DNA of 64,000 bases, from positions 76,322,001-76,386,000 of the forward strand of contig OX597816.1 in assembly GCA_951406725.2 (NCBI GenBank). Direction: 5' to 3'. The notes beneath the pieces were generated by a model. It saw only the letters and a list, made by a program, of their open reading frames with translations, had not been told where the DNA came from and made no database searches. Source of the stretch: Octopus vulgaris. Its lineage: Eukaryota. Made by a program: the position numbers and the translations under genes. Positions 4,834 to 58,480 of this stretch are shown here, piece by piece (the stretch's first letter is position 1; each line of letters begins with the position of its first letter).

Positions 4834-5528
4834 CAATATCCACGAATGCTATGTAGTGCACTCATTTCTATCGTTCGACATTTACGTATATATATACCTT
4901 TTCTTTCCTTTCTTTGTGCCTACTCATCCCGCATTTTGCATCAACCATCACGTTCTTTCTTAAGTTTTCTTATGTACCGGTGTGGTGCTTTTCAAATAAG
5001 CCTACCCATGTGCACTAAACCCGCAATATTACTCGTACGAAGTGAGACATGTTTGTATAGAAAGGGTTAAAACATGATAAGTCATAAAAAGTATAGTATC
5101 ATATGCTAAAATCATTAGAATACGATATCATCTAAGTCTTTCACATCTGTAGTGTAAATGCACTATTGTCACGAAAATTTTGACAGCTCATGAACGATGA
5201 ATATAACAGCTGTTTTATGCAAATTTGTGTGACCTAAATGACTCTTCAGCGGTGTAATTATTGTAGCCTCAAAGCAGGTGCTTGATCAAATTACTAGTTA
5301 TATAAATGCAGCTTCAACGTAAATACGAAGAACAAATACATGCAGATATAGATATGCACACATGCACACATCCACACAACATACACATTTATACAATCTT
5401 GCATGTATGTATGTATGTATGTATGTATGTATGTATGTATGTATTTATGTATGTATGTATGTATGTATGTGTGTATGTATGCATGCATGCATGTGTGTAT
5501 ATATGTATTTATATACATACATACATAC

Positions 5529-5562
<34 letters not shown>

Positions 5563-5563
5563 T

Positions 5564-6750
5564 CGAGGGGCGTTCAATAAGTAATGCCCCTGACCCACTT
5601 CGCATACCAGTAGAGCAACGGAACTTGGCACAGTTATTGGTCTTTTTCTACATAGGAACCACTCAGAGTTACGCATTTCTCCCATCGTTTGATCCAGCTC
5701 TGGAGACCGTTTTTGTAAAAGACCCCCAGCTTGGTCCTCCATCCACGACGTGACTTTAGAAATCAAGGCTGCATCATCTGGGAAATGCTTTCCTTTCAAA
5801 AACAACTTCATGGCTGGAAAGAGGAGAAAATCACAGGGTGCAAGGTCAGGAGAGTAGGGGGGGGGTTCATAGCCGCACGCCTGTGCTTCTGATCTGGCGA
5901 CACGCGAGTTGTGGACCGGAGCGTTGTCCTGCAGGAGGAGGATGCCTTTGCTGATCTTGCCCCGCCTCTTGATTTTGATAGCTTCTCTTAATTTCCTCAA
6001 AAGTGAAGCATAATAGGCTCCTGTAATTGTGGTACCCTTTGCCAGGAAATCTGTCATCACTACTCCGTCCTGGTCCCAGAAGACTGTGAGCATGACCTTG
6101 CCAGCAGAGGGCTGCACCCTTGCCCTCTTTGGAGGAGGTGAGTCACGGTGCTTCCACTGCATTGACTGGGCTTTGGTCTCTGGATCATAGTGATGGACCC
6201 AGGTTTCATCCTGTGTAATCAGTCTTTTGAAAAAGTTTGACTCATCTTCTTGGTACATCTCCAAATTCATCCTCGAGCATTCGACGCGTTCTTGCTTCTG
6301 GAAAGGTGTGAGCAACCTGGGAATCCGTCTGGCAGACACCTTTTGCATATGCAAATGGTCATGAATAATAGTTTTCACTAACCCGGTACTAATCTTGACC
6401 TCATGGGCTATTTGGCGAATAGTTATGCGTCGATCTTCCAAAATGGCAGCCTCAACTTGACGGGCATATGCCTCATCAATGGCAGAAGGGGGTCGACCAG
6501 ATCTGGGAGCTGTTTCCACAGAGTTCCGACCATGTTTGAATTCACGATGCCAGCGTTTTACAAGGTCATATGATAGGGCATCATCACCATAAGTTACTTT
6601 CATTTCATCAAAAGTCTCCCATGGTGTGCGTCCTTTCAAATACAAAAACCGGATCATTGCTCGACACTCAACAGGCTCCATTTCACACTTGACTCAGTTC
6701 AAACACCTGTTAATCGGAAACCAGAGGCATTACTTATTGAACTTCCCTCG
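5564..6750 (-). mobile_element. Mariner DNA transposon, copy 1 (DD34D; irritans-subfamily-like), internally deleted
   Basis: TIRs CGAGGGGCGTTCAATAAGTAATGCC at 5564 and GGCATTACTTATTGAACTTCCCTCG ending at 6750. Sits in (TA)n and encodes a transposase. Confidence 0.95.
5640..6681 (-). pseudogene. Mariner transposase, probably inactive
   Basis: HTH N-terminus, RSGRP, (W>R)IPRLLT, TQDETWVHHYDPETK, LLQDNAPVH, YSPDLAPCD. A 3-aa deletion before YSPDL leaves D-D spacing of 31, and the C-terminal frame runs through the TIR into the microsatellite. The left (C-terminal) coordinate is approximate. Confidence 0.9.
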
Positions 6751-7423: not shown

Positions 7424-7525
7424 ATACATACATACATATATATTTTTTTTATATACGAATTTTTAAGTGTTATTTAGAAAATTCATGGACATTATCATCA
7501 ATTTGCGCGCGAATATATGTATATT

Positions 7526-7587
<62 letters not shown>

Positions 7588-7602
7588 CATATATATATAT
7601 AT

Positions 7603-8430
7603 AAAGGTAAATGACGTGCAGACTGGATACACTGGCCCAGGAAGAATTGCAATCCCTGAGTCAAAATCAGTGCGTGACCTAGGCATTGACATGAGCAATG
7701 ATGCATCTTTCCAAGTGCATATTACTAATCTGGTGATAAAATGCAGACGGCTAGCTGGATGGATTCTCCGAACTTTCAGAACAAGAGAGAAGGAGACACT
7801 GATGGTCCTCTGGAAAACATTCGTCCTCAGCCGCTTGGACTACTGCTCCCAACTATGGTCACCACACAATATAAAACTAACAGCAGAACTCGAAGCAATT
7901 CAGAGAAGCTACACAAAGAAGATCGTCTCAATGCAAAATATCAGCTACTGGGAAAGACTGAAAGTATTAAACCTCTTCTCCCTAGAGTGGAGGCGGGAGA
8001 GATATGCGGTGATATACATCTGGAAAATCCGGGAGGGTCTTGTCCCAAACTTTGGCATTCAAAGTTACCCTAACCGAAGAACGGGGCGCCACTGCATGGT
8101 GCCAAAGATTCCAACATCACCATCAAAATACGGGACCAGATACTGCAACAGCTTGGGTTTCAGAGGACCACAGCTCTTTAACATCCTCCCTAAATGCCTG
8201 AGAGACTTACATGGTGTGGATGTGGGTTTCTTTAAAAATAAAATGGATCTCTTCTCGTCGGGTGTCCCAGATGAACCTACCTCACGACAGGAGACGCAGA
8301 TGCGGGCAGCAGCATCGAACTCCCTTGTTGATCAAGTGCCACGTATCAGAGGTGGATTCACATATTAGTGTAGCTCATTCAGCGGTGGTGCACCAGCATG
8401 GCCGCGGCCTTCGGGCTAAAACATTTTAAA
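7603..8430 (+). mobile_element. 5'-truncated CR1-group LINE (C-terminal ORF2 plus 3' UTR)
   Basis: VRDLGIDM...WILRTF...VLSRLDYCSQLWSP...LEAIQRSYTKKI...SYWERLKVLNLFSLEWRRERY is the post-RT region typical of CR1/L2-group LINEs. Frame open to a stop at 8368, then tail GCGGTGGTGCACCAGCATGGCCGCGGCCTTCGGGCTAAAAC. Confidence 0.88.
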
Positions 8431-20722: not shown

Positions 20723-21536
20723 GAGACAGGCAGAGACAGATAGACAGACAGAGGTAGATAGACAGACAGGAGAGTGTGTGTCTCTTGTAAAGAGAAGTAA
20801 GTAAGACAGAAATAAGGGAGAAGTGAATTTCACTACGTTTAAGAACTTTTTGCTTTTTAAAAAGATGTGTGAGAAACATTAGACTGGTCTCTTTGTTTTA
20901 CCGATTATTATAGCGGCTGAATTAAACTTCTATGACTCAAATACGTGAGATAATTTTCACATATTATTGAAATGATTTTATTTCACATCGTACTTATCAC
21001 AGGAATAGCACGCCAAAATGTAATTTTTTTAATTTGCTAAATTGTGCTAAATTCTGAGTTTAAAAAATATTACTTCCCATTTGGTTTGTGGTGAACGCTG
21101 TAGGGCAGGCATTAAGCTGCAAAACAGCAATCTGACTTCCCTAATAGAGTCGCTCATAGCGACAAGCCCAAAACTTTAATATTGTATCTAAGACAAATCA
21201 GCAAGGCATATTTCACTGCTACTACAGGTTACGCTGTAAGAAAACAGCAGAGCACTGGAAGCTAATAAAATTCTCCTCTATTTTATAATTCTGACGCTGC
21301 TTAGAATGATGTGTCTTGAGCCTCTTTATAGCTCGGAGTACTGAATAGTTTTAGTATCAGGTTATAGCTAGTATTTAGCTTCGTATCGTCTCTGGTTGGC
21401 ACTGGATGTACTTTAATACCCAGTATATTTATTCGACTAAAGGTGGGTGTTTACAAGTAAATTTGACCCAACCTGATGCCTATCATTTAATTATATCTGA
21501 TTCTCTCCCGAAACCTTAATATTGTGTGTGTGTGTA

Positions 21537-21819
21537 TAAAATTATAATTTAGGGTATCTAAGAGATAGGACCACGCTGGAAATAGCAGTCAAAACTTGAC
21601 TCTAAAACCACATTAAATGTTCATACAGCACCAGGAGAGAAGACAAAGAGACAAAATAAACTAGCGAAAAGTAATCCAGAAATATTTTTGGCTAGTTTAT
21701 TTTGTCACTTTGTCTTCTCTCCTGGTGTTGTATGAACATTTAATGTGGTTTTAGAGTCAAGTTTTGACTGCTATTTCCAACGTGGTGGTATCTCTTAGAT
21801 ACCCTTAATTATAATTTTA
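21537..21819. repeat. Long inverted repeat, ~130-bp arms with ~25-bp spacer
   Basis: 21537-21665 matches the reverse complement of 21691-21819 with only a few mismatches. Contains the GGAAATAGCAGTCAAA motif. Confidence 0.92.
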
Positions 21820-21902
21820 AATAATTATTACCATTGAAAGTTTTTATATCCATGCTAGCCACCTGATAAGATCGGTATTTAAATATCGATCTTATCCTTA
21901 AT

Positions 21903-21944
<42 letters not shown>

Positions 21945-22114
21945 TCACTATCAAGGTTGTGTGGAGTTCCGAATATATACAGGTGCTCAACCATAACAGA
22001 TCTTCAGGTAACACTTTATTGTATCAAATTACAGATATACGGGTTAGATAGGAATGTATATTTCAAGATCTGAGGAACTGAATTTGTAAGTTTTAATACA
22101 CTAGAATGAAAATT

Positions 22115-22587
22115 ATAATAAATCTCTGAACGAGATATAAACAGTAACCGCTCGACAACGTAAGGGGCTAAAAGCATCAGTAACAACCCCCGCCCCAGTG
22201 GCTAGCCACATTCAGATGGCTGATACCCCCTACGTTATCGAGCGGTTACTGTTTATATCTCGTTCAGAGGTTTATTATTGTTTTCAGACAGTTTTTCTAC
22301 ATCAGTGACAGTGGTTACTGTGAAAAACATTATATATTACTTGTGAGGGGACTCCTTCATCGAAGACCGATGCTTACCATGCGTTGACGAGAGGCAATTA
22401 CCTTGAAACTATAGTCCGTATGTAGTACTCGGGTCTTCGAGGGAGGATGACCTCCCTTTGCAAGTAACACAAGGACACTGAGATAGTGTCTAAAGTCCTT
22501 CTGGTGACGTTGATCGCCTGGGGCTAAAAGCATCAGTAACCCACCCCCCAGTGGCTAGCCACATTCAGATGGCTGATACCCCTTACG
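22115..22587 (+). mobile_element. Non-autonomous HHR-containing retro-insertion (retrozyme/PLE-like) with 13-bp TSD
   Basis: TAGAATGAAAATT at 22102-22114 and 22588-22600. Direct repeat at 22164 and 22520 (period 356). Inverted segment 22115-22167 matches 22226-22278. HHR at 22378-22422. Confidence 0.8.
22378..22422 (+). ncRNA. Type I hammerhead ribozyme (C3U variant); predicted cleavage after C22416
   Basis: CAUGCG-UUGACGA-GAGG-CAAUUA-CCUU-GAAA-CUAUAG-UC-CGUAUG. Stem I is 6 bp and is extended by UCGAAGACCGA/UCGGGUCUUCGA and further pairing out to ~22338/22467. Confidence 0.75.
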
Positions 22588-22663
22588 TAGAATGAAAATT
22601 GTTCTACATTTATTTTGTGTATCATCGCTCACTAATTACCTAGCCAATACTGGACTAAAGAAA

Positions 22664-22850
22664 GGCGGCGAAATGCTTAGCGGTATTTCGTCTGTCTTTA
22701 CGTTCTGAGTTCAAATTCCGTCGAGATCGACTTCACCTTTCATAATTTCGGATCCGATAAATTGAGTACCAGTTGCGTACTGGAATCGATAAAATCGACT
22801 AGCCTCCTGCCCAAATATTTTGGACCTTGTACCTAGCGAAGAAAATAATA
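22664..22850 (+). mobile_element. Meta-like SINE copy with an internal 5' deletion
   Basis: GGCGGCGAAATGCTTAGCGGTATTTCGTCTGTCTTTACGTTCTGAGTTCAAATTCCG...GATAAATTGAGTACCAG. Confidence 0.8.
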
Positions 22851-23072
22851 GTGGAGTAAACAACGCACTAACATACACACACAAAAACACACACACATAC
22901 ACACACGCACACACGTACACATACACGTACATGACTTCTCTCCAACACATCTCTGATGCAAACTCTCAGTCATTAGATATGCATAAATCTATATTTAGAT
23001 GTGTGTGTGCATGCGTAACTATTTATATAAATGTATATGTGAGTGTATGTGTATGTATATATATATATATAT

Positions 23073-23272
23073 ACTCTTTTACTTGTTTCAGTCATTTGAC
23101 TGCGGCCATGCTGGAGCACCGCCTTTAGTCGAGCAAATCGACCCCGGGACTTATTCTTTGTATGCCCAGTACTTATTCTATCGGTCTCTTTTGCCGAACC
23201 GCTAAGGGACGGGGACGTAAACACACCAGCATCGGTTGTCAAGCAATGCTAGGGGGACAAACACAGATACAC
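23073..23272 (-). mobile_element. 3' part of a second SINE family with a LINE-derived tail
   Basis: Reverse complement ends ...CGACTAAAGGCGGTGCTCCAGCATGGCCGCAGTCAAATGACTGAAACAAGTAAAAGAG. The tail resembles the LINE end at 8385-8422. Confidence 0.75.
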
Positions 23273-31015: not shown

Positions 31016-31499
31016 GTAAGCTACTACAAAGGAGGTAAATATCGATCATTACGATACAAAAGGCCATAGGAAGAACCATGCTAGGAATTTCATTCCGTGT
31101 GCATGTCCAAAATGCAGCTATTTGAGAAGAAGCGGAGTGAAAAATATATTAATATTATTATTATATCTTGTCTGTTGAAAATCTATATTTCGTGCAGCTG
31201 AAGAGAGCGCTGCATTTAAATTGATGTTATGATTACAATGTCCAATTAAATGGAACCTCTTGACACTGTCGTACTGCATTGACAATTTTCGTAAAGTTTG
31301 TAGCTGAGATTACACCTATTGCAGTAAATAAGGCTGGAAGAAGTGCAGCAGAAGAAATCCCTAATGTAGAGGTTGTACTGCTTGAGGGACGCGGTGCTAG
31401 AGATGAAGAGACATGTGTGGCAACAGGATCTGAAGCAAAGGAAGGATCCGAGTTGTGTTGGAATGGAGAGAGTGGGTCCAACGGAGCAGTAGTTTAAAG

Positions 31500-32090
31500 G
31501 AGGACAAAGGTGCCGTAGGGAAAATAGGGATAGTGGTGGGATATAGCAGGAGGTGACGTAAGGCCCGTAGGGTCCTCTGATGAAGGGGTGGCAAAGGAGG
31601 GGGAGGGGATGTGTTTGGGGGTTCGGTGTGGGGAAGGAGACCGGGCGGTGGTGCGATCGATTTGACGAGCGCGGGTAAGGGTACATTGGACTAGGGTGGA
31701 TGGATATCCGCGACGCATGAACAAGCGGGCCAGATACGGGTACTGGGTTTCGAAATGCTGATCGCGCTTGCACAGGGTTTGGAGGCGGAGGAACTGGGAG
31801 TAAGGGGTGGCCCATTGGGCATGGAAGGGATATGAGGGGGAAAAATTGAGGTAGAGCGGGAAGTCCGTGGGTTTGAAGATGGCGGAGATAGTGAGAGAGT
31901 GGGTGGAGATCAATGGGGGGAGAGAGAGAGAGATATCCAAGAAGTTTACAGAAATGCCAGGGATGGTAGAGGTAAATTGGAGAGTAGGATGAAAGTTAGA
32001 AATGAAAAAGATAAAATTGGAGAGTTGTTCGCGGGAGAGAGAGGTGGCACGAGTACCGTCGTCTATATAGCGACCGTATATGGGGTCGGT
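31500..32090 (-). mobile_element. Penelope-like element RT fragment (Neptune-like)
   Basis: GRYIDD...NFHPTLQFT...VNFLDI...FKPTD..LYLNFSPSYP....TPYSQFLRLQTLC...FMRRGYP matches the PLE RT palm/thumb signature. Confidence 0.88.
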
Positions 32091-32110
32091 TCGATAACTG
32101 TGAGAATATT

Positions 32111-32154
<44 letters not shown>

Positions 32155-32660
32155 TCCATAATAATTCAAACACTTTTTCTTACATCCACTTTCACCATTA
32201 TGTTACAGACGTTAGAAAATTATTTATAAATATCACTACGAATTTTCTATCTCTTTTATCCATAACTAGATTCTCAATTCATATTGCAATTTTTTTAATA
32301 ATTAACATTAAAATATAGAAACGTATATTTCTTTGAAAAATCTTTCTTACGAATTTACCTTAGCCTTATCTCTCCTACATTGTTATCAAATTCAACTTCT
32401 CTCTCAAAAAAGAGAAACTCTTTTATCAACACTAATTTTTTTGTCATTTGAATTTCAAGTAACTTACATAAAATTATACTAAATATTTGTATTTCTTATT
32501 CTAGGAATTTTTCAAACAAATTTCTTTTTAATATACACCATGATTTATTTTCATTACTTCCATTGTATAACTCTTATAACTGTCAACGCATATTCAAATT
32601 TAAATATAAGTATGCTGTCCCTTTGGGCGCTTATTTATTTATACACACACACACACACAC

Positions 32661-34321: not shown

Positions 34322-35795
34322 AACGTGTTTCGTGGTCTGCTACCACAACAGCTCCATTATAGGATCCAGTTAGCTCAAGACATCATCAGGAGGAACCACG
34401 TCCGGTTTCGGCCCCTACTCCTCTATCGTTTTGACGTGGCGGGGCCCCCCTTTCGGAGGTGTCTTCAGCTCTGGTGTTGGGTGCATGTCTTCTTTCTCCT
34501 TCTTTCTTCTGTTCCCTGGCCTCTTCGATGTATCGTCAGTGAGTGTCAGCCGGTGACTGACTATCTTGTCAAAGCTTTCCCTTTAAATACCTGCTGCATA
34601 GTCTCCAGCAGGCAGCCCCAGCAAGTTGTCACGTGACACTGTCTCACCTTAACTGACTAGTGAAGGCGCGTAGTTTTAGCCCGCGCTTTTACTAAACGAC
34701 CGTTACCTGACAGGCAGCCCCAGCAAGTTGTCACGTGACACTGTCTCACCTTAACTGACTAGTGAAGGTGCGTAGTTTTAGCCCGCGCTTTTTCTAAACG
34801 ACCGTCACCTGTCAGTCAGCTTGTCTCACCGAATGGTGTTATTTCCTGTCGGCGTGTTTATGACTTTCAAGCCATTTTCGGTCTTCCCGCTTCAACCATA
34901 TATAGAAGCTGGCTTTTTCGACCGCCTCCTGTACTCTCCTTATTAGTTTACGCAGCTCGGGGCTAAAAAAAACAAATCTTCTTTTGAAAAGTGTTGTCAT
35001 TCTCTTTTCAATGAAGACTTTAGCCCCCACTGCCAGGTGATAACATTCGACATTCCATCCCTGTTCTCTGCATTCTTCGATTAGCATTTCATACTTCTTC
35101 CCCTTTCGTTCCTCTGCATTGCCGATGTTCTCTTCCCAAGGTGCTGTCAGTTCTAGTAAAATTCTCATTCTCCGGTCTCTGTTCCAAAGAACTAAATCCG
35201 GTCTTTTTGTTGTTTTTATTAGTAGAAATATTACTTGTCTTTCCAAGTCCGTGGCCACCGCCCAGTATCCCTTCCATCTTTCGTCTATCTCGTATACTTT
35301 ACTTGTAGGCCTGGATTTATAACCTTTTCCCTCCTTGTTGAAGTATACTCACCTGCGCTTTTCTACTTTTGGGTATTCTCCTCTATTGTACCTCTCGATC
35401 TTATCCTTGAGTGCTGCGCTTATGACGCCGATGACTTGATTATGCCGCCATGTATATCTTTCAAGTGCTTGTCTGCAACCTGACAGAACATGTCTAACCG
35501 TCGCTTTCTCTCCGCATCTACACTCGTCGGTTGTTTTTATGAGGGTAGAACGTCGAAAGTAGACTTGATCAGGAAGGATGTTCTTGCTTGTTCCCAAGCC
35601 CAAAGTTCCTTCCATGATATTCTGCGGTTGATCATACATTCCTCCCATCTCAGGCACTGTCCCTGTTGACTGCATTACACCAAATGTACATTTCGCCTTT
35701 CTTCTTCTTCCTTTCTCACTTCGTATACCACTGCCTCTTTCATCTCTTTTACACTGCTCTTGCAAAATGGCCCGAAGTTTTGCGACCCTACGCCG
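34322..35795 (-). mobile_element. 5'-truncated HERO-like non-LTR retrotransposon (CCHC knuckle, REL endonuclease, 3' UTR)
   Basis: CRCGEKATVRHVLSGCRQALERYTWRHNQV; RPDLVLWNR...LELTAPWEENIGNAEERK.KKY..LIEECREQGW; stop at 34839; frameshifted. Confidence 0.85.
34608..34812. repeat. 102-bp tandem duplication in the HERO-like 3' UTR
   Basis: CAGGCAGCCCCAGCAAGTTGTCACGTGACACTGTCTCACC...AAACGACCGT(T/C)ACCTG occurs twice with ~3 differences. Confidence 0.92.
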
Positions 35796-35947
35796 GTTGA
35801 AGATAAGATAGAAGATAATTAAAGAATGAAACTCTTCTTATATGTAAATTTTAAATGTTAAAAACACTTACTTATATATATATCTATTATTCTGCATTTA
35901 TGTACACACGCACTTATATACACATACGCATAAACATATATATATAT

Positions 35948-42666: not shown

Positions 42667-43955
42667 GAGGGGCGTTCAATAAGTAATACCCCTGACCCAC
42701 TTCCCATAGCAGTAGAGCAACGAAACTTGGCACAGTTATTAGTCTTTTTCTACATAGGAACCACTCAGAGTTACACCTTTCTCCCATCGTTTGATGCAAC
42801 TCTGGAGACCGTTTTTGTAGAAGACCCCAGCTTGGTCCTCCAACCACGACGTGACTTCAGAAATCAAGGCTGCATCATCTGGGAAACGCTTTCCTTTCAA
42901 AAACAACTTCATGGCTAGGAAGAGGTAAAAATCAGAGGGTGCAAGGTCAGGAGAGTAGGGGGATGGGGGAGGAGTTCATAGCCGCACGCCTGTGCTTCTG
43001 ATCTAGCGATACGCGAGTTGTAGACCGGAGCGTTGTGCTGCAGGAGGAGGATGCCTTTGCTGATCTTGCCCCGCCTCTTGATTTTGATAGCTTCTCTTAA
43101 TTTCCTCAAAAGTGAAGCATAATAGGCTCCTGTAATTGTGGTACCCTTTGCCAGGAAATCTGTCATCACTACTCCGTCCTGGTCCCAGAAGACTGTGAGC
43201 ATGACCTTGCCAGCGAAGGGCTGCACCCTTGCCTTCTTTGGAGGAGGTGAGTCACGGAGCTTCCACTGCATTGACTGGGCTTTGGTCTCTGGATCATAGT
43301 GATGGACCCAGGTTTCATCCTGTGTAATCAGTCTTTTGAAAAAGTTTGACTCATATTCTTGGCACATCTCCAAATTCATCCTCGAGCACTCGACGCATTC
43401 TTGCTTCTGGAAAGGTGTGAGCAACCTGGGAATCCATCTGGCAGACACCTTTTGCATATGCAAATGGTCATGAATGATAGTTCCCACAGACCCGGTACTA
43501 AACTTGACCTCATGGGCTATTTGGCGAATAGTTATGCGTCGATCTTCGAAAATGGCAGCCTCAACTTGACGGACAGATGCCTCATCAATGGCAGAAGGGG
43601 GGTAACCAGATCTGGGAGCTGTTTCCACAGTTCCAACCATGTTTGAATTCACGATGCCAGCGTTTTACAAGGTCATATGATAGGGCATCATCACCATAAG
43701 TTACTTTCATTTCATCAAAAGTCTCCCGTGGTGTGCGTCCTTTTAAATACAAAAACCGGATCACTGCTCGTCACTCAACAGGCTTCATTTCACACTTGAC
43801 TCAGTTCAAACACCTCTATATCAGAAACCACAATTAGTTCAGAGCTGTAATTTGCCACTTAATCTATAGAGATATAAATAATTGCACATGTAAATTTTCA
43901 GCTAGATCAAACAACTGCAAGTGGGTCAGAGGCATTACTTATTGAACGCCCCTCG
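42666..43955 (-). mobile_element. Mariner DNA transposon, copy 2 (1290 bp, full length, TA on both sides)
   Basis: ~37-bp TIRs CGAGGGGCGTTCAATAAGTAAT(A/G)CC(C/T)CTGACCCACTT. Transposase is frameshifted: WIPRLLT, TQDETW, second catalytic D changed to H (LQHNAP), shift at HPP/YSPDL. Confidence 0.95.
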
Positions 43956-52213: not shown

Positions 52214-53666
52214 TAAATTTTAAAATTACAATAAGGGTGTTGAATGATTACAATACCAGTCTACTAGAAAATAGACCCCAAATGGTCTATGAACCACTTA
52301 GATTATTACTCCACTACACAACGTTGTAAGCGAGGAAAATAGAAAACGAGGATTTATAAAATAATTTGGATAGTACCATATCTATAGATTTCATGGTTTG
52401 AGTTATTAAAAATCCTTTCCGATCAGCAGTGGCAACATACTGAACGTAAATAAATGAAAAATATATAATAGATATATAATATGTATAATATTATACATAA
52501 GCACAAATAATGTACATGCATCACAAATTTTAAATCCAAGTGCCTATTTCAGCAATGTGCTTATTTACTCAGAATAGTTCTGCAGTAAATATATATCTTT
52601 ATACGTAACTGTGTACAGTTTGAACACTACAGTATGTAGCGGTACACATAGATTATCATTATTCAGTCAGCTTCCTGTTTAGTGTTGAGTGTAATACTGT
52701 ACTTAGCAGTTTTACTAGTTCTAGGGTGATGAACCACTCACACTTTTCCAATGATGGAACTAGTGTTACATGGAATAGCGATATCCCCACTTGAACAATG
52801 CAGTATCCATATCTTCTGGGCAACTGTTTATCGTTTGTTGTCAATTTAACACATTGAGGTATACAGAGAATAGAATTCGTTTCAATCTCTAAATGATTGT
52901 CATGATAAAATTATATGTCTTTTGTACTCTTTGAGATTCAGTTTTTTTCCAACGCACAACAAACTATAAATATCTTGGCAAAATTAATCAGATGGCACAT
53001 ACGTTAGTTTTAGTAGTTGAGTATCTGAAACATCTGCAACAATGGAAAGCCAACATTGTCTTAGTTTCATATCAGTGCAAGGAAAAGAAAACTGTATTTG
53101 GGAACACTCAATATTCATTGTTCACCTGAAATTGTTACATTCACTCTTGAAGTGTTAGCAGTATCGAGGATGTGAAATCTTTCTGCTATGGTGTTGTGTC
53201 TTCGTTATCGTGAGAGTAGGTGATGAACAGAAATGCAAGTCTTCATATTGAAAGAAGGATGCACAAACACGCATTTTTGCATTTGTGTGTATGTGTGCGC
53301 GCGTGTGTGTGCATGTGCTGATGTTATTCAGCCTGGAGTAAAAAGTGGTACATTCGAACAGAAATAACCAGTAGCATTAATGCTTGGAGGAGTTAACGTT
53401 TCCTATCACATGTATATAAATAAGACGTTTATATAATATAAAGAATATTTGCCAACATAATTTGGCTGTCCTAAAAGAGACAATGTTACTGTTGTTTTAG
53501 CCCCAAGAAACAACGTTTCTAGCTGGCTATACGATTCCCGCCTAGCGCAAACCAACATATGTGGAGTAGTTTCTGTTATGGCTCTTTATTAACACAGAGT
53601 AACTGCTTTCACCGTTCGAACCTATAGTTTTCAAAGTGACACACAGTCACTGATCAAAAAATAAAA

Positions 53667-53833
53667 AATATTATTATTTCTAAATCTCTCAAAGAGAGAC
53701 ATTCAATAACAGTTCTTTAAAGTAAATGCTATATGCCCCTTTCGGGACAGCCATATTATGTTGGCAAATGGCCTTTATTTTAAAGAACTGTTCCTGAATG
53801 TCTCTCTTTGAGAGATTTAGAAATAATAATATT
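53667..53833. repeat. Inverted repeat with ~70-bp arms; the spacer is repeated in inverted form at 53446-53478
   Basis: AATATTATTATTTCTAAATCTCTCAAAGAGAGACATTCA / TGAATGTCTCTCTTTGAGAGATTTAGAAATAATAATATT. Confidence 0.9.
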
Positions 53834-54198
53834 CATAGTTATAGGTTTATTTGTATGCACTGTAAATCCGTATTATGTTTCTATGCACATATATTTTCGT
53901 ATGCACATTAAAAATCACGCAAAAATAAACACATACAAAAATACGAACACACACAGATAGAATGGGTAGGCAGACAGCCAGTTTGTCACATAACTCCAAA
54001 CAATAAGAAAGGAATATCCAATCTCAAGAATTGAATGAAATGGTATATGGAAGCTGAAAGATCATGAATCATTACTCTGAGTAACTCGGCACTAATACTT
54101 ACCTTTGTAATGTTTAAAAACGAGGAGAATGAAGCAAAAAGGAGAGGTGGGCATCATTAACATAGATTTCGTACCAGACATATGCATTGGTTATTAAT

Positions 54199-56489: not shown

Positions 56490-58480
56490 ATATGGGCACA
56501 GGATGTCACCACAGTAAACAACAATATATACGAAAACAATGAGTTCAATACACAAACAACAAGAGAAACAAATGGAAAACAGGACAAGTATATAAAGAAC
56601 GACCTTTCATCAGATGTCGACGGTCTATCTACTTCTCATTTCGAGCATTGATCGACAATATGAGTCCTCGAAGACTATTGCTCCTATAAGTAAACAAACA
56701 TGAAGGGTCGTTAGACCAGAACGAGGGTAAAATAGCGAACGCCGCCTCCAGGCCATTTCAGTAGACTAGACTTGTACCTGCACGACTGCAATGCGCTGGT
56801 CGACCGATTCAATTTCAAAAAAAGATCTCTCCGAGCCAACCTCACCCGTGCTGAATCGATCGCCCTCGCGATCCCTGTCATTGGACCAGCAGGAAAAGGT
56901 GGAGCAGTGGTGGTGTGGTGCGGGGACCTATACAGAGATGTTCGGCTACGTGCGAACACTCCCTTTGCCCGTCACTTCCGCTTTGCAAACCCCCTCTAAC
57001 ACCTCCGACTTTAGCCTCGCTCTGCACCACAGATTCACACACTCACGACTCTGCCTAGAACAGCGGTATATCTTTAATCTACGAACAATTATCCACTTCG
57101 GACTAAACACAACCCCCTCCTCCTATTGACTGCCTCTACACCTCCTGCAAGAAAGCAACCTTATTCCATTTTCACTTCTTTTTTTGTAAATTGCGCCATT
57201 TTATATTGTATTAACTTCTTTATCTCCTTTCTACCTTACTTTTTATAATTCATTGCTTTTATTTCTATATACACGCACACATACAGACACATACGTACAC
57301 ATCCATACATACATGAAAAAGCACACGCACCCGTGCACACACATTAATGCGCATATATCTCTCACACACACTACACATATACAACACACATACATGCACA
57401 TATACACATACACATACTTCCACACACACACACACGCACATACACACGCACACACGCGCACACACATATGCCCACACATACATTTGCACACATAACCCGA
57501 CACACATCTCCACGTTCACGCATACATATACACATGCATGCACATACGCACATACACACACGCACAAACATATACACACGTACATACACATATATACGCA
57601 TATTCGCACATGCATGTACACACGCACACGAATGCACACATGCACGCACACACGCACATGAATGCACACATGCCTAACACTCACAACCCCACGCATACCC
57701 GTATACACACACGCACACGCACACACGCACACAAATACACACGCACACAAATACACATGCGCACATACACGCACATACAGACACATGTACACACGCACAT
57801 ACATTCACACGCGCGCACATATATACACACACGCACACACACAGAGTAACGTACAGTTACTGTACAGACACAACCTCACACGTACACACACATATATACA
57901 TATACAAACACACACACTGCAAACAAAACACACAAACAGTACATATATATACACGCACACACACATACTTCAAACTACCAGTACCTTTCTACTGACCATT
58001 CTCCTACGCACATGTGTAGGTTGAGACACGACAGCCACTCCTAATTCTTCCTATGACCTTAAACGATAGTAAGTCCAACCACACACATACATAAACAGCC
58101 ACAACCACACACATACACACATACACACACACTCGCACGCACATACACATACTATCATTACACACATACACATATGCAGACGCACGCACACGCACATACC
58201 CACATATGAACACACACATATCTCCTTCTTTTGCACTCTCCTGTCTTTGAAAGAACTTTTTCTTCCCCCATTCCCTTCCGGTCATTTCAATATGTGACCG
58301 CGTGTGTATCGTTGGCGATTTTCTTTCTCCTTCTTCCCTTCTTTGGAATTTTTCTATACCACTGATGAAGAGCTCCGCTCGAAACGGGAAATCCTCTTTC
58401 TTTTCTTTCGTTTCCTGAGTGTCCAATAACACTGTACTTATTCCACGTCCTTGTTGCTTGTTCATGTTTGGATTGACTAC
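56490..58480 (+). mobile_element. Internally deleted Neptune-like Penelope element with a probable HHR-bearing 3' terminal repeat
   Basis: NLTRAESIAL...VIGPAGKGGAVVVW..DLY (ADKG-type motif upstream of PLE RT) is fused to PFARHF...SRLCLEQRYIFNLRT..HFGLN (GIY-YIG C-terminus). CA-rich tract at 57270-57965; family B repeat at 58283-58480. Outer limits are inferred. Confidence 0.65.
58358..58390 (+). ncRNA. HHR core in a family B repeat
   Basis: CUGAUGA-A-GAGC-UCC-GCUC-GAAAC; stems I and III are degraded. Confidence 0.5.

Follow-up and report, generated by a model that had tools for sequence, protein, structure and literature searches.

The 64-kb window analyzed here, the whole stretch of Octopus vulgaris DNA under study, contains a short non-coding insertion with a hammerhead ribozyme. 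What kind of element is it, how would such an element be transcribed, and which machinery would move it? The last two questions coincide with gaps in the retrozyme field: in the available sections of a 2020 review, how animal retrozymes are transcribed and what mobilizes them are both unsettled, and retrozymes seem to have neither a promoter nor a motif pointing to a helper (PMC7761336). Metazoan non-LTR retrozymes of similar size, 350-390 nt in mussel and 330 or 350 nt in axolotl, appear in the accessible part of an earlier report (PMC7229834).

Here, we describe the octopus family to which the insertion belongs. The family offers genome-readable answers to both gaps, with base-level predictions for the start, the promoter motif, the two reverse transcriptase (RT) starts, and the cut site. 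Its value lies in the family as a whole, that is, in a rule for paired insertion ends (A+B), a likely U1/U2-type promoter, and a LINE that homes to the predicted start site, and not in the window copy, which is a dead end.

Anatomy of the window copy

The insertion is bounded by identical 13-mers at 22102-22114 and 22588-22600, a 13-bp target-site duplication (TSD) whose edges are ambiguous by 1-2 nt owing to microhomology. Its features are as follows, unit position p being window position 22163+p.

22102-22114, plus strand: left copy of the 13-bp target-site duplication, ending in bases microhomologous to priming site B
22115-22167, minus strand: the shorter arm, inverted and spanning unit positions 63-115, with its outer end at fixed site B
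22164-22167, no strand: GGGG microhomology, 4 bp, at the junction of the two arms
22164-22587, plus strand: long arm, 424 nt or 1.19 units; outer end at fixed site A
22235-22238, plus strand: internal copy of end site A, unit 72-75
22276-22287, plus strand: internal copy of end site B, unit 113-124
22301-22307, plus strand: ATCAGTG, candidate core of an snRNA-type proximal sequence element (PSE), 58 nt upstream of the predicted start
22337-22467, plus strand: rod hairpin, pairing sequence 5' of the predicted start with sequence 3' of the ribozyme
22356-22375, plus strand: predicted +1 (ATCG at 22359), also the site at which a Tx1-like LINE inserts in other copies; empty here
22378-22422, plus strand: type I hammerhead; U3 lies at 22384, stem III is palindromic, and the cut is predicted at 22416/22417
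22588-22600, plus strand: right target-site duplication, identical 13-mer

The start of the unit reappears 356 nt on, monomer positions 1-72 being repeated at 22520-22588 with 92% identity, and a 3-nt indel in this repeat makes the spacing 356 and then 353 nt. The inverted arm is the reverse complement of window positions 22226-22278 and overlaps the unit start by four G residues. The hammerhead core (22384-22416) comprises stem I, stem II, GAAA, the palindromic stem III, and GUC at 22414-22416; a hand-made hammerhead descriptor matched a single locus within the 64-kb window, namely this copy, and an Rfam scan of 21500-23200 at E<=5 did not detect the hammerhead. The rod has a predicted fold of -56 kcal/mol, and there is no ORF of 120 aa in the copy. 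The first-pass annotation had described the 13-bp TSD, the 356-nt monomer with its repeated start, the hammerhead with a GUC site and palindromic stem III inside a rod, and the 53-nt inverted cap, and all of these were borne out.

Position 22164 is a mere meeting point of two cDNA arms and no natural unit start, and the window copy is a single, ageing, ordinary daughter copy of a dispersed retrozyme superfamily. It retains the promoter motif and the ribozyme, yet with one ribozyme it would not yield a circle by itself, so the earlier idea of this copy as a source of circular RNA was abandoned.

The window also holds a second relative of the superfamily at 53425-53850; this one is far older and has two arms, its core is decayed, and its promoter motif lies on the minus strand. 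Other repeats include a near-perfect, MITE-like inverted repeat of ~215 nt at 21569-21786 (where Rfam miRNA matches all fell under the gathering score), Mariner transposase frames at 5509-6693 (label from a search) and 42915-43664, Penelope element (PLE) fragments at 31246-32165 and 56742-56948, and what we take to be LINE fragments at 7478-8368 and 34839-35837.

A dispersed superfamily with a covarying hammerhead fold

A search of the 2.8-Gb genome with the unit gave 166 matches from the 40 that were scored among 2309 candidates, and the exact core pattern gave 242 matches genome-wide with none in the control; these hundreds of copies agree with the original view of a multi-copy, non-coding hammerhead retrozyme. 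The unit is 353-356 nt long and arms extend to as many as 3.4 units. The U at core position 3 had been suspected to be a private, inactivating C3U change in the window copy, to be checked against a consensus with C3 restored. However, U3 and the hammerhead core occur in all 39 aligned units, U3 is found in 99 and C3 in one of the 100 core matches listed among the 242, and more distant subfamilies have canonical C3. C3U is a family trait, not decay of the window copy. The literature search found no passage on a U3-G8 core, which departs from the canonical hammerhead core.

Distant subfamilies, 70-80% identical, were found beside the LINE described below and by pattern search. A promoter-start-C3-core pattern had 163 matches (7 in the control), and among 17 fetched matches, chosen by eye for diversity, 16 are relatives with canonical C3. 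The fold was examined in 15 units, five from the U3 subfamilies and 10 of these 17, the other seven being left out as truncated, deleted, or unrelated. In the hammerhead-plus-rod structure 86% of cells are paired, compared with 31-48% in slid controls, which flatter this score because the structure was drawn from the same 15 sequences. Two-sided changes occur in 15 of the 43 pairs, and the hammerhead fold covaries across the family. Eleven of the 15 units have a perfectly palindromic stem III, in five different sequences, and two more have a wobble-compatible one; a palindromic stem III is a mark of dimeric hammerheads according to the available portion of a previous study (PMC4209133). When folded as a circle, a natural unit (L022) is 64% paired at -95 kcal/mol, with a modest z of -2.2.

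A type I hammerhead is present in each unit, the non-coding tandem unit falls within the 150-450 nt range of retrozymes, TSDs exceed 4 bp, and the unit has no LTR, PBS, or PPT layout, its insertion ends being the A and B sites. The family works like a PLE-mobilized non-LTR retrozyme, and none of the defining features tested spoke against this, cleavage and circle formation being predictions. The superfamily is apparently undescribed: the literature search, with Repbase and subscription papers outside its coverage here and below, found no description of it.

Insertion ends carry a Penelope signature

Insertion ends were tabulated for 86 loci, comprising the 24 best matches, with their bias toward full-length copies, plus a further 62 core-pattern matches in order of genome position. 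We set aside duplicates (L072, L081-83, L144), chimeras with a short repeat that we call element X (L067, L172), and the composite locus L097/L098. The outer 3' ends cluster at site A (unit 70-77) or site B (unit 113-124), ~44 nt apart. Two arms are present at 44 of the 86 loci, and their ends are A+B in 37, B+B in one, and A+A in none, with one end broken or elsewhere in the remaining six. Script scoring had given 35 A+B, one B+B, and eight with one other end; hand correction of five loci then removed a duplicate pick (L102, -1), reassigned L150, L023, and L158 to A+B (+3), and resolved L140 into two single-arm insertions. Thus, 37 of 38 scorable two-armed insertions are A+B (p about 1e-10 under independent site choice), and the composite locus, not counted among the 86, breaks the rule in that both of its outer ends are at site A. 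The inner joints of the two arms are scattered along the unit.

(AT)4 is present at an end in 47 of the 86 loci, and the other targets are AT-rich. Flanking duplications of 9-16 bp (median 12) were found in all 15 A+B insertions tested outside long TA runs; among mismatched pairings, 8 of 210 reach 9 bp. The fixed A+B ends, the 9-16-bp TSDs, and the TA-rich targets are the signature of PLEs, whose tail and two RT start sites are known (PMC11167929, PMC8557442). The table upholds the first-pass reading of PLE-type ends, inserts longer than one unit, and ends permuted relative to the cut site. Priming at two sites and on two strands has been seen in vitro for one PLE, and the dozens of natural insertions behind the A+B rule put it to the test in genomic data. 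As a separate observation, L143, L144, and L097/L098 have a common inner joint (138|10), indicating that whole two-armed insertions were duplicated, and L097/L098 contains the LINE in both arms.

A helper of the PLE class is well supported by the insertion ends. A young 6.2-kb PLE family, with copies 99-100% identical and an ORF encoding RT and a GIY-YIG-like end, terminates in (TA)n in all eight matched terminal copies, and the window PLE fragment near 31.3-32.1 kb is 70% identical to this family, with no match in a Pfam search. The proposal that the window PLEs are helpers holds in that their family targets (TA)n, but it finds no backing in sequence common to unit and PLE, which was absent from 34 of 36 loci of one PLE group; the other two have short matches only, a captured fragment and a 20-mer. 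The first-pass annotation had also considered that copies might always be joined to a coding PLE, and no RT/GIY-YIG ORF is attached in the fetched copies. Core pairs spaced 1.4, 1.6, 3.6, and 5.9 kb, taken up as coding-PLE candidates, proved to be host duplications, separate insertions, or LINE insertions. Element X was considered as the end of the helper and rejected as a separate short TA-targeting family, the chimera occurring in 2 of 25 loci as one duplicated event.

Two other repeats deserve mention in their own right. At L051-L066, the very young 6.2-kb PLE lies in tandems, and its RT ORF is followed by long extra open frames (445-720 aa) without a Pfam match. Element X (L219-L243) is a short, AT-rich, TA-targeting family with 1131 first-look candidates; its copies often have two arms, with 3' ends at two places separated by ~40 nt, and it is another likely PLE passenger.

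A likely U1/U2-type promoter

Of 30 U2 loci, many of them array copies, 23 contain ATCAGT between -57 and -61, and three of the seven that lack it are LINE-interrupted; U1 genes have it at -56 to -59 in 9 of 14 regions, one of the 14 being misframed. The retrozyme unit carries ATCAGT at -58 from a conserved ATCG (22301 versus 22359). The motif lies at -59 and -60 in the subfamilies found via the LINE and between -57 and -60 in three subfamilies whose discovery did not depend on it, the chance of the motif in such a window being ~0.002. The family thus has the element expected of a PSE, common to U1 and U2 and ~55-60 nt before +1. A second ATCAGT in the window copy's subfamily (unit 13-18) is not conserved and, by eye, the A-rich CAGA 3' box common to U1 and U2 has no conserved match after site B. 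Conservation of the promoter motif may owe part to RNA structure, because the motif also sits within a conserved small RNA hairpin. This pattern, with the LINE leaders described below, suggests that ATCG is likely the transcription start and that the family is likely transcribed from an internal snRNA-type (U1/U2-type) promoter. Within its coverage, the literature search found no retrozyme with a U1/U2-type element besides newt satellite 2, discussed below. Non-retrozyme matches to the promoter motif plus ATCG, at G000 C8:100465241, C11:62003687, and C3:97510953, may belong to further snRNA-type genes.

A Tx1-like LINE homes to the predicted start

At one locus, a 5.5-kb APE+RT LINE lies within the unit at 193-212, with a duplication. 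Across 30 loci retrieved with the 3' end of the LINE, two of which (L103 and L106) are the two arms of one locus, the 3' flank opens with ATCG within a few bases in 29 and differs in one. These 29 flanks comprise 20 retrozymes of several subfamilies, five U2 +1 sites, three retrozyme-like starts followed by another LINE head, and one unknown, the U2 genes being presumed such from their sequence; no U1 insertion was present among the 30 loci. The LINE copies are 86-100% alike in host units that differ by up to 30%, and truncated copies (L014, L128, L188) have different 5' ends, which argues that the insertions were independent. All four full-length U2-inserted LINEs contain, after the U2 duplication, a 14-nt leader that agrees with subfamily 2 from +1 to +14, one mismatch aside (13 of 14 positions), and is absent from LINE copies inside subfamily 1. 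This leader likely marks a LINE donor transcribed from the retrozyme ATCG, and the four copies may stem from one donor.

The LINE appears to be Tx1-like, given an ORF1 zinc knuckle, APE, RT, and zf-RVT domains, and a specific target with TSD; its top Atlas cluster is named TX1 and its top PDB match is L1 ORF2. Within the same coverage, no LINE at U2 +1 was found, and the +1 of snRNA-type promoters is a LINE target site not found in the literature searched. The LINE piles up in tandem in U2 arrays (L098 1488-7008; L103-L132; L181-L186). Inside U2 array units, a retrozyme piece of ~60 nt has also been captured in another repeat (L056 9840-9906, L186, L211-L213), presumably a Helitron given that its end resembles a Helitron terminus (hairpin then CTAG).

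Predicted cleavage, and circles or multimers

Two independent chimeras break exactly after C17, one joined to element X and the other to the head of another LINE (L132), and both fusions need an RNA that ends at the cut site. The X chimera at C1, C5, and C15 is one event that was re-copied. A genome-wide purine-junction pattern at the cut site had four matches, all of them the X chimera, the last letter of the pattern missing about a quarter of cases, L132 included. Among Xenopus dimers, only 1 of 9 cleaved in vitro in the accessible portion of a 2026 preprint (10.64898/2026.07.22.740005).

A transcript from +1 to site B would measure 281 nt and lack the promoter; 79 of 146 arms are longer than 285 nt, the longest being 1,239 nt. 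Element 5' ends show no peak at the cut site (none at 254, two at 256), and two fall exactly at +1. The 26 nt before +1 form an outer helix with sequence 3' of the ribozyme, 19-25 of them being paired in 14 of 15 units, and three two-sided changes fall in this helix, which can form only in a circle or a read-through multimer. To release a cut-to-cut monomer, a copy needs a promoter and then two ribozymes, an arrangement present at 7 of 86 loci; the window copy is not among them. Circular RNAs of related retrozymes are described from coral, mussel, and axolotl in the part available of the report cited above (PMC7229834). None of the sequencing runs holding the repeat is recorded as RNA; four contig sets, three of them presumed RNA, all cover it, and contigs cannot show ends, strand, level, or circles. 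We infer circles from the logic of outer helix and arm length, together with the related retrozymes.

A proposed life cycle and its alternatives

We consider it probable that the insertion is a dispersed daughter copy of a 356-nt non-LTR retrozyme, with an internal snRNA-type promoter and predicted cutting and circularization, that was inserted by a two-strand-priming Penelope-type RT/endonuclease. Pol II would very probably start at ATCG, 58 nt upstream of the cut site and driven by the U1/U2-type element, a start suggested by the LINE leaders. Quite probably, read-through of two-ribozyme copies would then release cut-to-cut monomers, the palindromic stem III permitting dimeric cleavage, and ligation of these monomers into circles is probable as well. 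A PLE protein, to which the end pattern points, would nick the two strands of AT-rich DNA at positions staggered by 9-16 bp; priming would take place at site A from one strand and at site B, ~44 nt further 3', from the other, and the cDNAs would join by microhomology. Nicking, priming, and joining taken together we hold to be highly probable. For the window copy, the bottom strand would have been primed at A and extended for 424 nt and the top strand primed at B via target microhomology and extended for 53 nt, the arms meeting at GGGG. U2 +1 and this same +1 are both targets of the Tx1-like LINE, which would likely borrow the promoter. We give about even chances to a three-tier system that combines a viroid-like, promoter-carrying hammerhead circle, a PLE dimer that primes both target strands, each at its own fixed site in the RNA, and a Tx1 LINE that homes to snRNA-type +1 sites, hopping between U2 and retrozymes, with the U3-G8 core cleaving in vivo; in such a system, circularization would be the sole way in which the retrozyme regenerates its promoter, and the LINE leader would record the start site.

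The life cycle could also run with the same promoter and PLE helper but no circle, the templates being linear read-through multimers or cut monomers joined by RT template jumps. The chimeras imply template jumps onto a cut 3' end, hammerhead cleavage is dispensable for PAc insertion in vitro (PMC11167929), and a circle and exact cut-to-cut jumping look alike in genomic sequence; the absence of an RNA record among the runs and the nature of the contig sets also leave room for this reading. We nevertheless regard it as rather unlikely: plain linear copying from +1 drops the promoter in every round, no donor array bigger than the longest arm occurs among the 100 listed of the 242 core matches, 5' ends are not enriched at the cut site, and the coral, mussel, and axolotl relatives form circles.

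The remaining alternatives concern the nature of the unit and of its inverted cap, and each is less probable still. That the copies are 5'-truncated remnants of an ordinary coding PLE, with the unit as its pseudo-LTR, seems very unlikely, even though every insertion feature is a PLE feature and Xenopus retrozymes resemble pLTRs in the available portion of the preprint (10.64898/2026.07.22.740005): units run head to tail for up to 3.4 copies with no ORF in between, all fetched core pairs of wider spacing have the other origins given above, and the PLE loci offer nothing beyond the two short matches, in flanks mostly of 1.2-1.5 kb and a tblastn with one PLE family. The first-pass annotation had a single RT copying from A and then switching strand or folding back to produce the cap, for which the microhomology at inner joints, such as GGGG in the window copy, might speak. 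Yet the outer end of the inverted arm is fixed at B and abuts the TSD, the joints that vary are the inner ones, and the window cap contains sequence 3' of site A, which is never in an A-primed cDNA end, and keeps the family letter at three places where the long arm differs; strand switching is therefore highly improbable, and the fixed outer end with scattered inner joints fits separate priming of both target strands. The tight association with the LINE (20 of 30 LINE 3' flanks) might suggest a SINE-like passenger, an idea to which we give almost no credence, as the LINE is nested within the unit and flanked by a TSD of its own, the repeat ends without poly(A) or a LINE-like tail, the targets differ (TA-rich versus ATCG), and a retrozyme at U2 +1 with LINE-type 14-20-bp TSDs is found in none of the 86 loci.

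Relation to known systems

The probable PLE-mobilized retrozyme resembles metazoan non-LTR retrozymes, as described in the available part of their report (PMC7229834), in size, lack of coding capacity, type I hammerhead, short palindromic stem III, tandem units, GC below 50%, TSDs above 4 bp, and a self-paired unit. In comparison with that account, the octopus family differs in consisting mostly of dispersed insertions of 1-1.5 units with fixed PLE-type ends and in a U3 core fixed in three subfamilies; it also has the U1/U2-type promoter motif, whereas known retrozymes seem promoterless in the review sections cited at the outset (PMC7761336). With PLEs, known from PAc/Poseidon in vitro (PMC11167929) and from tail anatomy (PMC8557442), the family has in common two adjacent 3' ends, a tail at one end only, an inverted 5'-truncated arm, partial tandems, AT-rich or microsatellite targets, and priming of both strands. 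Unlike PLEs, the octopus unit has no ORF, its tail is ~44 nt versus 30-40, and it has no sequence in common with the sampled PLE family.

We know of no PLE-type ends or homing LINE in newt satellite 2. In the available sections of a paper that cites the original newt work (Coats 1994), that hammerhead repeat is reported under an snRNA-type Pol II promoter, as is likely in octopus (PMC2220036). It forms vertebrate satellite arrays, from which the octopus family differs. Xenopus retrozymes have been interpreted as non-autonomous PLE derivatives, the same conclusion on helper class; the case made there is built on co-occurrence and on pLTR trees from vertebrates, and the available portion of the preprint holds no analysis of insertion ends, TSDs, or promoters (10.64898/2026.07.22.740005). 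The octopus LINE is similar to Keno and Utopia in being an APE-type LINE in U2 arrays with tandem pile-ups (PMC4640811, PMC4494074). Keno and Utopia insert at U2 nt 38/39, whereas the octopus LINE duplicates U2 +1 to +14 and also uses the retrozyme +1.
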